Shown: positions 58,180 through 64,000 of the stretch, piece by piece
How positions within the stretch are numbered: position 1 is the first letter of the stretch
Layout of the letters: every line of letters starts with the position of its first letter
The notes under the pieces: generated by a model
What the model saw: the letters and a program-made list of their open reading frames with translations, nothing else
The model's database searches: none
What the model was told of the DNA's origin: nothing
Translations under genes and position numbers: made by a program
Source of the DNA: a virus
Lineage: Duplodnaviria; Caudoviricetes
Reading direction: 5' to 3' (one strand)
DNA: 64,000 bases
Virus record (IMG/VR): IMGVR_UViG_3300031813_000006
Span: 59,598 to 123,597 of that record

Positions 58180-58364
58180 ATTATTTTTCTTCATTATTAG
58201 ATAGGAAATCTTTAGAAGGTTTTGATCTACCGGTTAGTCATTTTGTAGTTGCTAAGTCTAATGCAACATTTAAAAGAATTCAGTCAGAAACTCACAAAAG
58301 AGAAATTTCTGTAAAGAATCAAATTGAATTAGTAAGACAAGATGGTATCTTACGCAGGAGATAA
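58176..58364 (+). CDS. Hypothetical protein
   Basis: 62 aa ORF in operon. Confidence 0.5.
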   Translation: MNYFSSLLDRKSLEGFDLPVSHFVVAKSNATFKRIQSETHKREISVKNQIELVRQDGILRRR

Positions 58365-58743
58365 GTTAAAAGCTGTCCATTCATTCATGGTTTTTCCTTC
58401 TGATTTAAACTATAACAGTAGTTTATTTGGAGGAAAAATCATGGCTGAGATGGATATTGCTGCATTAAAAGTATGTAGACGTGCTTTATATGGAACCAAT
58501 GCTTATACAGCAGTTACTGTGAAATTTGACAGTATAATCTTTAAGAAGGCTGCTTATTCAGGTGATCTTATTACTATGACTGCTGAAATTAAAGCATTTG
58601 GTAAAAGTAGTATTACAGTTAAAATAACTGTTACAAAGGAAAATTCACCTACGGGAGAAGTAGAGGAATTTTGTAAGGGAACTGCAATATTTGTTGCAGT
58701 AGATAAAAATAGCAATCCCGTGCCTCATGGATTATCTTTTTAA
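58342..58743 (+). CDS. Hotdog-fold acyl-CoA thioesterase (YciA-like)
   Basis: VFPSDLNYNSSLFGGKIMAEMD...AVTV...FKK...GD...GKSSI...FVAVD matches YciA family. Confidence 0.85.
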   Translation: MVSYAGDKLKAVHSFMVFPSDLNYNSSLFGGKIMAEMDIAALKVCRRALYGTNAYTAVTVKFDSIIFKKAAYSGDLITMTAEIKAFGKSSITVKITVTKENSPTGEVEEFCKGTAIFVAVDKNSNPVPHGLSF

Positions 58744-59452: not shown

Positions 59453-59569
59453 AAAAGTCCCGGGTTAATATCCCGGGCTTATTAATGCATCATAACCATT
59501 TTCCAAAGGAATGGCTCTTAGGGATAAGAGAATGCAGATGGATAAAAAGAAATTTATAAAAACCCAAAT

Positions 59570-60454
59570 ATGAAAACAGAAAGTGTATTTTTAGGTGATC
59601 ATGGATTATCATCTTCAGAAGCTAATCATATTGCTAATGTGACTAAAGAATTATCAGTTAACATAGGTAGAGAAATTGAGTCAGTTTCTCTATTTGAAAA
59701 GACAATTACTGATAAAAAAGGAACATATCCTTATAATTTTATTAATCCTATTCCTGAAAACTTTGAAAAAATGTTTTTCACAGAAGGAGAATTGTATGCT
59801 TTATCTGCTTGGTTAAGAGAGGGTATTAAAGCAAAAGATCAAATGATGGAATCTATAAGGAAGTCATCATTGGGTAGTCTAGGTTTTGAGAGATATCCTC
59901 AGCCTGTTTTGAAACCTGTATTATCTCTTCCTGAAGAGCAAGATATGATTGAGCATTTAACTATTGCTGAACGTGCTGAATATCTTAAATATGAATCTTT
60001 AGCCGCACATCTTGGTAAAAAGATTCATAAAAATGGATTACTTGACAGTTGGAAAATGAAGATTTCTGATTCTAAACCTTATTATGCTGAAGTATTTGGA
60101 CAAGAACATGCCACTATTCAATGTAAGGTTTTAATTCCATTAGAAACTATTCAGAAGTTATCCTTAGATCTTCAAAAAGAGTGGAGAGAATATGAGTCTA
60201 AAGTCAATTATTATAAGGCTAAACTCAATAATCTTTACAATGATGAAGTCTCTAGGATTAATACAGCAAATGCTATGATTCATTCAGAGAATAGTAAACT
60301 CATCCAAAATGAGATTAGTACTAATCAGATTATTTATAATCAATATGAAGCCAAGAAAGCTGAATTGATTAAAGAAATATCTGGAAAGAAGATTATTATT
60401 CCTCATACTCTTCAAAGTACTCTTGATTTTATTTTAGCATTTGCTAAGAAATAG
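59570..60454 (+). CDS. All-helical coiled-coil protein of unknown function
   Basis: 294 aa; GLSSSEANHIAN, AWLREGIKAK, EYLKYESLAAHLGKKIH motifs; heptads in C-terminal half. Confidence 0.75.
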   Translation: MKTESVFLGDHGLSSSEANHIANVTKELSVNIGREIESVSLFEKTITDKKGTYPYNFINPIPENFEKMFFTEGELYALSAWLREGIKAKDQMMESIRKSSLGSLGFERYPQPVLKPVLSLPEEQDMIEHLTIAERAEYLKYESLAAHLGKKIHKNGLLDSWKMKISDSKPYYAEVFGQEHATIQCKVLIPLETIQKLSLDLQKEWREYESKVNYYKAKLNNLYNDEVSRINTANAMIHSENSKLIQNEISTNQIIYNQYEAKKAELIKEISGKKIIIPHTLQSTLDFILAFAKK

Positions 60455-60460
60455 CATTAT

Positions 60461-61211
60461 ATTCCCAGTGATAGCAATATCATACTTTATGTAAGAGCTT
60501 AAATGAGTTGTTTTCAACTTAAATATGACATAAAAGAAGTACAAAAGTTTTTACTTTTGGCTGGGATTAATTTTATCTACATAGGTGGGAGCTATAAGCA
60601 TAGAGAGATGTCCTAGTCAGGATACGGAGGCGGTGTTAAATACTTGATAAGGGGACCACAATGTAGAGTTGTTTGAAATTTGATTCCTTATTTAATAAGC
60701 TGATGAAGATTATTATTTACTTGTATAAACTGGGTTATAGCCATAAAATGAAGAAACCAGAATTTAACATAATGACTGACTTACACTTTCAAAGTAAAGT
60801 GAATCTTATTTAATAGGTGAAAAATACTGATTCTGATATACAGATGAATGTTTTTCTTTACATTACAAATTATAGATACTGAACTTCTATAAACTAAAGC
60901 GGCGTAGTGCCCTACAAATTTAATAAGGCATACTCTGACCAGGTGCCTTATTAGAACTCCGCGTTTCTCTCAAACTTAATATAATTGCCATTGAAGTCCT
61001 TACAGAATGAAACACTTCTGATAAATAAGGATGGAGGCAAAACAGTCTTTGTTTGTGTTTGAGCTTTTGAGAGAGAAACGGTCTTTGTTTTAGTTTTTAT
61101 TTTTGTCTACATTCTATAATTTGTAATGACTATTTTAATTTAACATTCTCATGAAACACATTAAAAGAACATTCATTTACATTTTGTACAAAATCTTAGA
61201 TTTATTTCACC
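60461..61211 (+). ncRNA. Large structured ncRNA candidate (~750 nt)
   Basis: No ORF of 60 aa or more on either strand; nested stems of 16, 10, 10, 9 and 7 bp plus many hairpins; strand inferred from context. Confidence 0.6.
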
Positions 61212-61227
61212 GTAAACAACTTAAGAA

Positions 61228-61635
61228 ATGGAAGAAAAATTGATTAATAATCCTTTATATAGATTACAGATCTATTTAAAGATTCATTATCTTCTTACAA
61301 GTAAAGTAGGTGTAGAAAATGACGCGTATCAAGTAGGATTATGTGATCTTGTGGCACATTTAAGTACGTATGACATCAGTGAGTTTCCAGAACTCAATGC
61401 ATACCGTCCTATAGATCTAGATGCCCAATCTTATCCATGGTTTAAGACCCACCAAGAACGGGTTGATGCAGTAGAAACAGCTATTAATAGCATAACAGAC
61501 ATTGTAAATATGCCAATAAACTCATTTGATGATTATAATGACCATAAACATGATTACACATGGCTTAAGATTGTAACATTCATTGGAATTTCTATATTAG
61601 CCATAATGCATTTAGTAGAATTAGCTACTAAATAA
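61228..61635 (+). CDS. Hypothetical protein with C-terminal TM helix
   Basis: 135 aa; WLKIVTFIGISILAIMHLV. Confidence 0.6.
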   Translation: MEEKLINNPLYRLQIYLKIHYLLTSKVGVENDAYQVGLCDLVAHLSTYDISEFPELNAYRPIDLDAQSYPWFKTHQERVDAVETAINSITDIVNMPINSFDDYNDHKHDYTWLKIVTFIGISILAIMHLVELATK

Positions 61636-61639
61636 TATT

Positions 61640-61691
61640 AAATCTAGGTGCTCAATGGGAGCTTTATTGGGTTCAAATCCCACCTGGATTT
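61640..61691 (+). ncRNA. Minimal tRNA mimic lacking the anticodon arm
   Basis: AAATCTAGG/CCTGGATTT stem, GCTC-AATGG-GAGC D-like hairpin, TGGG-TTCAAAT-CCCA T arm. Confidence 0.6.
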
Positions 61692-61735
61692 CTAAATTAA
61701 TAATAAAAAATTAAACAATAAATCTTTAGAAGATT

Positions 61736-62452
61736 ATGAAAATCAAAGACATCAAAGATCCAAAAGTACAGCAAATGGCTGTAGTGGAAGCAATCAAACA
61801 TAACCCAAAAAACACTCTTAAAAATATTTTAAAACTTAACTTAATAGCTGCATTTAATTGGGGTAAATCACCACAAGGATCATTTTTTTGGGATAAGGTT
61901 CTTTTTGAAAAAACACCAAAATACACCGACAAAGATTTGTGGTATAAAGATACAAGTGGTAGCCAAATAATTCAGTGCGAAACACACAATTACAAATCAT
62001 CTCTTGTTGAGCAATGGATAAGACTTGCAACACCAGAAGAAGTTTATAAACACTTAAAACAAAAAGACATGACTAACCCAACTTATGGTAAAAACACCAT
62101 TTATAAACAAGAAGAACCTGAAGTACAAAAAGATGCCTCTACTTTACACAAGCCAATGTGTAATGACTGGGAAACCTACGCTATTCAACTAGAGCAAGAT
62201 GTTAAAGATTTAAAGTTTAAGATTGCCAACCTAGAAGCAAATAAGGATTGGTTATCTTCACAAAACGAGAAGTTAAACAAACTGGTGGATGAGATTGAAT
62301 CCAACTGCGAAGATCAAACAAATCCAAGAATGAAGTTAAATGCTATTCACCGATTAATCTATTTACACCGCAACCCATCCTTAGTAGGCACTACCCATAC
62401 GGTTGAGATTGATGGTAAAAAGTATGAAGTACAAGTAATAAAAAAAATATAA
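61736..62452 (+). CDS. Hypothetical multidomain protein
   Basis: 238 aa; AFNWGKSPQGSFFW motif, coiled coil. Confidence 0.6.
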   Translation: MKIKDIKDPKVQQMAVVEAIKHNPKNTLKNILKLNLIAAFNWGKSPQGSFFWDKVLFEKTPKYTDKDLWYKDTSGSQIIQCETHNYKSSLVEQWIRLATPEEVYKHLKQKDMTNPTYGKNTIYKQEEPEVQKDASTLHKPMCNDWETYAIQLEQDVKDLKFKIANLEANKDWLSSQNEKLNKLVDEIESNCEDQTNPRMKLNAIHRLIYLHRNPSLVGTTHTVEIDGKKYEVQVIKKI

Positions 62453-63517: not shown

Positions 63518-64000
63518 ATGAAACAACTATTGATTAAATTAAACGCTTGTCAAGAAGCTAAAGAATGGGCATCAGACAAGACATGGGAAGAGATTTACAA
63601 CACTTGCCATAGAGGTGATTGGCTTTTGTGGCTGCACCAACGAACAAATAAAAAAGACTTGCAAGTAAGAACACTAGCCAAAGGACATTGTGCTAATACT
63701 GTAACGCATTTGATGCAAGACGAGAGAAGCATAGTAGCTATTGATACTGCTATTGCATTTGGTGAGGGTAGGGCGACACGCGCAGAATTAGATTCTGCTG
63801 CTCGTGCTGCTGCTCGTGCTGCGGATGTTGCTTTTAATTCTACTTATTCTGCTTATTCTGCTTCGGAGGCTGCTTATTATGCAGCTGATGCTTCTTATTA
63901 TGCAGCTGATGCTTATTCTGCTTCGGAGGCTGCTAGTGCTGCTGCTAATGCTGCTGAGGCTGCTGCTGATGCTGCTGCTGAGGCTGCTGTTTATGTTGCT
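63518..64000 (+). CDS. Ala-rich repeat protein (Imm5-like phage family), runs off the right edge
   Basis: MKQLLIKLNACQEAKEW...CHRGDWLLWL...DERS...A.AF.EG.AT..EL then AAxAA/AAYY repeats. Confidence 0.7.
   Translation, partial: MKQLLIKLNACQEAKEWASDKTWEEIYNTCHRGDWLLWLHQRTNKKDLQVRTLAKGHCANTVTHLMQDERSIVAIDTAIAFGEGRATRAELDSAARAAARAADVAFNSTYSAYSASEAAYYAADASYYAADAYSASEAASAAANAAEAAADAAAEAAVYVA

Follow-up and report, generated by a model that had tools for sequence, protein, structure and literature searches.

What lies between two small genes of a tailed phage, in a gap of 773 nucleotides (nt) that holds no open reading frame (ORF) of 60 amino acids (aa) or more? The gap occupies positions 60455 to 61227 of a 64,000-nt stretch, called the window here, which is the final 64 kb of the 123,597-bp IMG/VR virus record IMGVR_UViG_3300031813_000006; coordinates refer to the window unless another locus is named. 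It falls within a + strand run of small genes, with a 294-aa ORF (59570-60454) on its 5′ side and a 135-aa ORF (61228-61635) on its 3′ side. An earlier model-made reading of the letters (the sequence-only reading) had proposed that the gap encodes a nested-stem RNA of about 750 nt, comparable in size to the large phage RNAs GOLLD and ROOL, which begins 7 nt after the stop codon of the 294-aa gene and forms a ribonucleoprotein (RNP) with its product. We find that 268 of the roughly 770 nt, at 60861-61128 on the + strand, are a conserved folded RNA whose family is absent from Rfam, and that the remainder of the proposed 750 nt is no better than chance. This element is probably a member of an undescribed structured-RNA family found in one branch of the crAss-like phages, and its most plausible role, in our opinion, is that of a stable protein-binding scaffold.

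The first step is to establish how much of the gap is RNA. The inverted repeats quoted in the sequence-only reading and its 10-bp hairpin are all present at 60861-76/61113-28 (a perfect 16 bp), 60959-74/61066-81, 60844-55/61165-76 and 60921-30/60944-53, and the absence of longer ORFs holds for the whole of 60455-61227. The claim of dense pairing over some 770 nt stands up statistically for one part of the gap and fails for the rest. The 773 nt as a whole fold moderately better than shuffled sequences (z of -3.0 for the + strand and -4.25 for the - strand), and this signal comes from the core alone: 60861-61128 has a z of -6.5, with none of 200 shuffles folding as well, whereas the 406 nt on its 5′ side (60455-60860), which hold the domains closed by TCCCAG/CTGGGA and TCTACAT/ATGTAGA, have a z of -0.37 and are equalled by 35 of 100 shuffles. 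The outermost stems, of 9 and 7 bp, are at chance level, since 47% of flank shuffles yield a perfect complement of at least 9 bp.

The comparison with relatives places the boundaries in the same positions. The closing helix of the core, which we call P1, begins 407 nt past the stop codon in the window and in a near-identical lake contig (L062), and 1 to 114 nt past it in other relatives (mode 38). Thus, the proposed start of the RNA, 7 nt past the stop codon, is wrong. The intervening 406 nt resemble neither any fetched locus nor the rest of the genome, and they are an unrelated, lineage-specific insertion outside the conserved element; they may contain a small unannotated ORF or be decayed sequence, and two short + strand ORFs lie there (60503-60616, 37 codons, and 60673-60813, 46 codons). 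Across the family, the conserved element measures 170 to 320 nt instead of about 750, and the comparison with GOLLD and ROOL on grounds of size lapses with the 5′ domains and outermost stems, which have neither statistical nor comparative support. The parts of the locus are as follows.

59570..60454, +: gene of the 294-aa helical protein, an ORF and the conserved neighbour 5′ of the RNA
60455..60860, +: lineage-specific 406-nt spacer (z -0.37; no homologue)
60861-61128, +: whole element, 268 nt, delimited by the fold z of the core and by conservation
60861..60876, +: P1 5′ arm of the 16-bp closing helix, perfect complement of 61113-61128
60921..60953, +: P2 hairpin, an inverted repeat with a 10-bp stem; its homologue in the gut/rumen clade, immediately 5′ of Px, covaries
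60962..60971, +: Px 5′ arm, pairing with 61071-61080; covariation
60985..61040, +: kink-turn-like hairpin inside Px, by sequence signature
60985-89/61036-40, 60990-92, 60993-94 and 61034-35, +: within that hairpin, the canonical stem (C-stem), the 3-nt bulge and the tandem G.A/A.G pairs, followed by an extended non-canonical (NC) stem
61045..61070, +: hexamer array 1, of period 6, G-first and U-rich, inside Px on its 3′ side; its G and U columns do not vary between clades
61071..61080, +: Px 3′ arm, supported as its 5′ arm
61081..61112, +: hexamer array 2, which separates Px from P1 and comprises about five G-H-Y-H-U-U units, from the composition of 46 distinct arrays
61113..61128, +: P1 3′ arm, supported as its 5′ arm
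61129..61227, +: 3′ spacer ahead of the 135-aa gene, with the 3′ halves of the two unsupported outermost stems; no homologues

Is the core conserved elsewhere? We fetched 53 viral and 80 metagenome loci with relatives of the 294-aa protein. An ORF-free gap of about 270 to 470 nt follows the protein gene in most of 57 loci, and nhmmer first revealed a conserved core that the window has in common with two loci, L002 and L003, whose proteins are 44% identical to that of the window. A profile built iteratively from the 3′ half of the RNA placed the motif after the protein gene in 95 of 134 loci, which is a minimum; the loci come from metagenomes of gut, rumen, lake and ocean. No relatives were recovered by blastn of the region in a phage collection, by a single-protein scan of viral contigs or by a scan for an exact 22-nt pattern. 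The sequence-only reading had allowed for a match to a known intron or Rfam family; cmscan returned none, with group I and II introns, riboswitches and the T-box among the models. Against Rfam 15, there was no match at gathering score in the window, nor at E values up to 10 in 60300-61800, GOLLD and ROOL included, and ARAGORN reported no tRNA. A search of 20 related loci with Rfam gave tRNA and transfer-messenger RNA (tmRNA) only, all outside the element save one weak tRNA match on the tRNA-like insert of L008, and no GOLLD or ROOL.

The helices, more than the sequence, are what these loci share. P1 (median 18 bp) and Px (median 10 bp) recur in 70 distinct elements, with sequences that are unrelated between lineages, and both lie well above shuffles. 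In structure-blind MAFFT alignments, 98.0% of P1 cells are paired (70.2% in shuffled sequences), all 18 of its pairs show compensatory changes and the score is 0.903 against 0.32; for Px, in 28 diverse sequences including that of the window, 99.6% of cells are paired (61.9% when shuffled), 9 of 9 pairs are compensatory and the score is 0.852 against 0.21. Sliding the partners by 1 to 3 columns in these alignments lowers both scores to between about 0.05 and 0.23. Within the clade of the window, 11 of 16 P1 pairs show compensatory changes and RNAalifold recovers P1 and Px; in the gut/rumen clade, the hairpin equivalent to P2 covaries at all 9 of its pairs, with 95.5% paired. In addition, 12 members from gut and rumen, the window not among them, served to train a covariance model (R1) in which P1, P2, Px and P3 are annotated. 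Its first search gave 56 matches, all on the gene strand and directly 3′ of the gene, and in the alignment that R1 itself fitted to them, 94.5% of cells are paired and all 43 pairs are compensatory, with slid controls at about 0.1. R1 matches the window at 60913-61125 (+), with E = 0.0015 in a 1.1-kb search and Px correctly aligned. Furthermore, under symmetric scoring, P1 and Px contain 167 G.U and 18 A.C pairs, which identifies the folded strand as the + strand, the one that is transcribed. The sequence-only reading had proposed aligning the DNA downstream of homologous genes, and conserved, covarying structure is indeed found there, on the gene strand, in many phages. The covariation of the element is as strong as for accepted RNA families.

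Some members of the family deserve separate mention. In bajarodcaudo virus 1 (PQ006092.1; L061/L263), which has both the RNA and the protein, the RNA lies at 88010-88217 (179 bits with R1) and overlaps the coding sequence of a 58-aa hypothetical protein, XHH63432.1 (88046-88222), which is probably a mis-call; both RNA and protein are absent from crAss001 and phi14:2. In three relatives (L004:3950-4222, L008:3918-4183 and L007:3936-4253), a circularly permuted tRNA-like module lies between P1 and Px; it runs from the T-arm through the acceptor 3′ strand, a short linker and the acceptor 5′ strand to the D-arm and an anticodon-like arm. The acceptor has G3.U70 and A73 in L004 and L008, and CCA is also encoded in L004; the acceptor stems covary between L004 and L008, and ARAGORN makes no call. 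The window element does not have this module.

What do the neighbours of the RNA suggest about its production? One large clade has a tRNA gene whose start lies 8-9 nt past P1 (19 of 69 distinct loci), so that RNase P cleavage there would form the 3′ end of the RNA. Gut relatives also have tRNA arrays and an ordinary tmRNA just 5′ of the protein gene. This adjacency fits co-transcription with tRNAs and maturation by tRNA-processing enzymes. The tmRNAs are of the one-piece type (for instance, L013:2593-2975 and L016:2177-2559, and, in the genome of the window phage but outside the window, G000:C1:12085-12464), and their tag in gut relatives is GNTSYRVAA; the element itself was not detected as a tmRNA by RF00023 or ARAGORN. 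An alternative use of the same position is control in cis, in which the RNA would be an element of a 3′ untranslated region or leader (such as a processive antiterminator, a translational operator or an attenuator that depends on a protein) that governs the flanking genes. The element does lie between co-oriented genes, no terminator-like site was found after it, it ends 15 to 170 nt ahead of the next ORF in many loci, and its U-rich arrays could load a regulator. However, the downstream gene is not conserved and varies by lineage, with 19 singleton clusters among 56; in the clade just mentioned, the next gene is a tRNA 8-9 nt away; and the RNA outlives the loss of the upstream gene in L145, a locus to which we return below. 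We therefore consider cis regulation unlikely, although it fares best among the alternatives.

Two features of the element hint at proteins as its possible partners. The first is the hairpin inside Px, where most members have the signature of a kink-turn: a C-stem of at least 3 bp is followed by a 3-nt bulge, by two GA dinucleotides with a spacer between them, and by the partner of the C-stem. The 3b.3n pair is A.G, as in Kt-7, and the C-stem varies among CCC, GCC, CUC and UCC with matching partners, and thus covaries. About 38 of 56 elements contain a pattern with a 3-bp C-stem, a 3-nt bulge, GA...GA and A.G at 3b.3n, which in the aligned rows inspected occupies the corresponding place within Px. 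Since the loose expression also matches a mean of 26 of 56 shuffled sequences, it is the conserved position and the covariation of the C-stem, and not the count, that support the kink-turn. At the sequence level, the window hairpin (60985-61040, with a lengthened NC stem) has the makings of a kink-turn, and no other such motif occurs in the 123.6-kb genome.

The second feature is the pair of arrays on either side of the Px 3′ arm, each a 6-nt repeat of G followed by a G-free, U-rich spacer. They are presumably unpaired; their pairing with the region between P1 and P2 (J1/2), a partner that we tried and rejected, is no better than in shuffles. Among 46 distinct versions of array 2, position 1 is G in 100, 97, 86, 78 and 86% across successive units, position 3 is a pyrimidine in 97-99% in the first four units and less often later, and position 5 is U in 100, 100, 97 and 93%, while positions 2-6 of the first four units are practically devoid of G. 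Unit 1 reads G100 U97 Y99 Y99 U100 U91 (percentages), followed by G97. The period-6 invariant G and U columns of array 1 likewise hold across clades.

The hexamer unit equals the binding consensus of CspB of B. subtilis, GTCTTTG/T (GUCUUUG in RNA), and cold-shock domains (CSDs) have six base subsites (PMC1904285, PMC7825780). In the window, two exact heptamers lie 36 nt apart, at 61045 and 61081, and they are the only close pair among 17 copies in the 64 kb. The match is a lead toward putative binding. There is no CSD gene in the phage, so a CSD binder would have to be a host protein.

The same arrays could be read at the level of DNA. A replication origin or priming signal would form its hairpins in unwound DNA, and T-rich, G-phased repeats would load a single-stranded DNA (ssDNA)-binding protein or a primase. 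For instance, in L008 and in the P0016 contig, the protein gene comes immediately after that of DNA polymerase A, and GTC is the recognition core of T7-type primases; DNA hairpins tolerate G.T wobbles; and CSDs bind ssDNA about 10-fold better than RNA (PMC7825780). Nevertheless, the kink-turn signature, which includes tandem sheared G.A pairs, belongs to RNA, the element invariably lies on the transcribed strand and borders tRNA genes, the unit of the gut clade reads GTTCTT rather than GTC, and P1 and Px accept G.U far more readily than A.C (the counts are given above). A function as ssDNA is, in our view, decidedly improbable, more so than regulation in cis.

Could array 2 instead be a tiny coding or template sequence? 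Its G-first frame would specify alternating small and hydrophobic residues over some 16 codons, the last of them close to where P1 ends. This frame stays open for a median of 16 codons, compared with 9 and 3 for the other two, and the invariant G1 and U5 are compatible with GNN NUN codons. However, 23 of the 46 distinct arrays have no in-frame ATG, GTG or TTG (ATG occurs in only 12), pyrimidines make up 89% of third positions (51% in the neighbouring gene), the spacer between arrays is 12 or 13 nt, so that the frame is not kept, the window has an in-frame TGA, and the frame runs into the P1 helix. The lack of start codons in half of the arrays, the pyrimidine third positions, the variable spacer and the TGA together indicate that the constraint acts at the nucleic-acid level; these phages, moreover, have a separate, ordinary tmRNA. 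Coding is thus very improbable, and the same can be said of a single giant RNA at 60455-61211, for which nested outer stems do exist and the 773 nt do fold somewhat above shuffles, but in which the z is that of the core, the outer stems are due to chance, the 5′ 406 nt are missing in all relatives, and no GOLLD or ROOL match was found. Two further ideas were set aside: a telomerase-like template, as the genome ends in coding sequence with no hexamer repeats there, and a Bacteroidetes promoter reading of the TTTG motifs, whose spacing, read off the sequence, is wrong.

What, then, might the RNA bind? One candidate is the product of the gene upstream. The protein has 36 homologues at 26-46% identity, with a family length of 285 to 330 aa, and its AlphaFold (AF2) model, with a confidence (pLDDT) of 90.6, is helical and includes one helix of 50 residues as well as two small beta-hairpins. 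It matches no family in Pfam, PHROG or NCBIfam; the best Foldseek match in the PDB, ClyA, is uninformative (TM score of 0.26), a VIA wide search gave Z of at most 7.5, which is background for helical bundles, and BFVD yielded one uncharacterised homologue and the ESM Atlas nothing usable. The conserved K, R and H residues of the family would suit nucleic-acid binding. About 1 kb 5′ of the protein gene, two relatives have a 199-aa ORF with a weak reverse-transcriptase (RVT_1) match (L004:1385-1984 and L005:75-674).

We also approached the association from the RNA side with a low-complexity pattern scan, in which most matches were due to chance and 16 true elements were found among the 80 matches listed. 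In 14 of these 16 elements, the protein gene lies just 5′, and the other two are one cut off by the end of the locus and L145. In almost all the loci covered, the RNA directly follows the gene. Synteny and co-occurrence of this kind are what suggests an RNP with the 294-aa protein.

The reading that we prefer, a scaffold RNA that acts on proteins, can be put together as follows. The RNA would be co-transcribed with its neighbours and released as a stable RNA, its 3′ end being created, in the one large clade, by RNase P at the tRNA gene that follows. Once released, it would act in trans as a protein-binding scaffold or sponge. A single-strand-binding protein with a 6-nt footprint would occupy it at one protomer per hexamer, and a second docking point would be offered by the kink-turn. 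The candidate binders are the CSD proteins of the host, on account of the identity of the unit with the CspB consensus and of the six base subsites, or the phage's own 294-aa protein. A more specific version, which we offer tentatively and regard as rather unlikely in its full form, is that of an unrecognised phage RNP in which a kink-turn-anchored RNA with phased hexamers loads a filament or ring of host cold-shock or 294-aa protomers, one for every 6 nt.

Several observations weigh against the scaffold reading. We infer both the ends of the transcript and the stability of the RNA. In L145 (IMGVR_UViG_3300045988_009427, L145:1-2547), the RNA is intact, at 219.6 bits, and the protein gene is reduced to its last 40 codons, with two tRNA-Arg genes in its place; since the RNA is retained there without the full gene, it cannot strictly need the protein, and we doubt that the two form an obligate pair. 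Other hairpins take the place of the kink-turn hairpin in some members, for example L002-L008. The CspB match amounts to a resemblance in U-rich sequence, for which the specificity of CSDs is low. There is no canonical tRNA gene in the window, and the processing argument is consequently not directly transferable to the window phage. Finally, bulk catalogues of phage structured RNAs (PMC10690425) could already list the motif.

Comparison with known systems shows where a scaffold of this kind would stand. Among the closest are CsrB and RsmZ, which bind CsrA, and the trp leader with its (G/U)AG repeats, which binds TRAP and in which the sites recur every 5-6 nt. Like the element, these RNAs present short repeats at fixed spacing on a structured scaffold, but the motif of the element is G with a U-rich spacer rather than GGA or GAG, its partner is only putative, and it is phage-encoded, with a kink-turn and a long closing helix. 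The bacterial and phage Y RNAs (YrlA) that associate with Ro60/Rsr also have a long helix formed by the two RNA ends and genes among tRNA genes, and the tRNA-like module with a closed acceptor stem in L004, L007 and L008 could be likened to theirs, although the window element has none. However, there is no TROVE/Ro60 gene (PF05731) in the 123.6-kb genome (control genomes were positive) and no Rfam match to Y RNA or YrlA, and the neighbour is a 294-aa helical protein instead of a Ro ring.

GOLLD and ROOL resemble the element in being phage-borne, near tRNA genes and of unestablished function, and GOLLD can embed a tRNA; the element is two to three times smaller, with another architecture and no sequence or structure match to them in Rfam 15. 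With kink-turn RNPs (Kt-7 of 23S rRNA, box C/D RNAs with L7Ae, and the bacterial YbxF/YlxQ), it shares the C-stem, the 3-nt bulge, the tandem G.A/A.G pairs and 3b.3n = A.G. Unlike theirs, its motif is predicted from sequence and is missing in some members, and there is no L7Ae-family gene in the phage. The T4 species 1 and 2 (rnaC and rnaD) are stable non-tRNA RNAs in a tRNA cluster that are matured by tRNA-processing enzymes, and the element, if as stable as we suppose, would be another stable non-tRNA RNA from a phage tRNA cluster; in the T4 RNAs, which are about 120 to 140 nt long, neither hexamer arrays nor a kink-turn are known.

Few viruses of the human gut are as abundant as the crAss-like phages. 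In the literature that we searched, we found no description of a non-coding RNA from them, and the paper of Yutin (2021) on crAss-like genomes mentions none; the family thus appears to be undescribed. If the more specific RNP version is correct, these phages would capture a host RNA chaperone, or protect or route the transcripts of their tRNA clusters, and the permuted tRNA-like module of some lineages, with its alanine-type acceptor features, would be an addition to the same scaffold. The strictly phased repeat leads to a concrete, testable prediction, namely one protein protomer per hexamer, and the locus provides biochemistry with a defined RNA and protein pair in which the protein fold has no known match. 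Even apart from function, the RNA accounts for a recurrent ORF-free gap and would correct at least one overlapping coding sequence in GenBank.

As to the phage itself, its large terminase is closest (at about 25% identity) to Crassvirales references and to crAss-like phages of Flavobacterium and Azobacteroides; portal and major head protein families were also detected, and the sequencing runs that contain the stretch are lake and freshwater metagenomes. Around the RNA, some smaller features may be recorded. Just 5′ of the 294-aa gene, at 59459-59477, a GC-rich hairpin is followed by a T-rich tail, terminator-like on both strands, and could mark the start of the transcription unit that contains the RNA. 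On the other side, at 61640-61691, we identified, by eye only, a 52-nt tRNA-like element that neither ARAGORN nor Rfam calls; it has no anticodon arm, G3.U70 or CCA, and consists of an acceptor stem of 7 bp, one of which is G.U, a D-like hairpin and a T-loop that reads TTCAAAT. Both ends of the record (window 63700-64000 and G000:C1:1-300) lie inside similar, diverged coding sequence with Ala-rich, GCT-rich repeats, so the break probably falls within a paralogous gene family and is not a true genome end. Lastly, the 133-aa ORF at 58342-58743 has a clear domain of the 4HBT thioesterase superfamily (E = 2.6e-10), which is unusual for a block of small phage genes.

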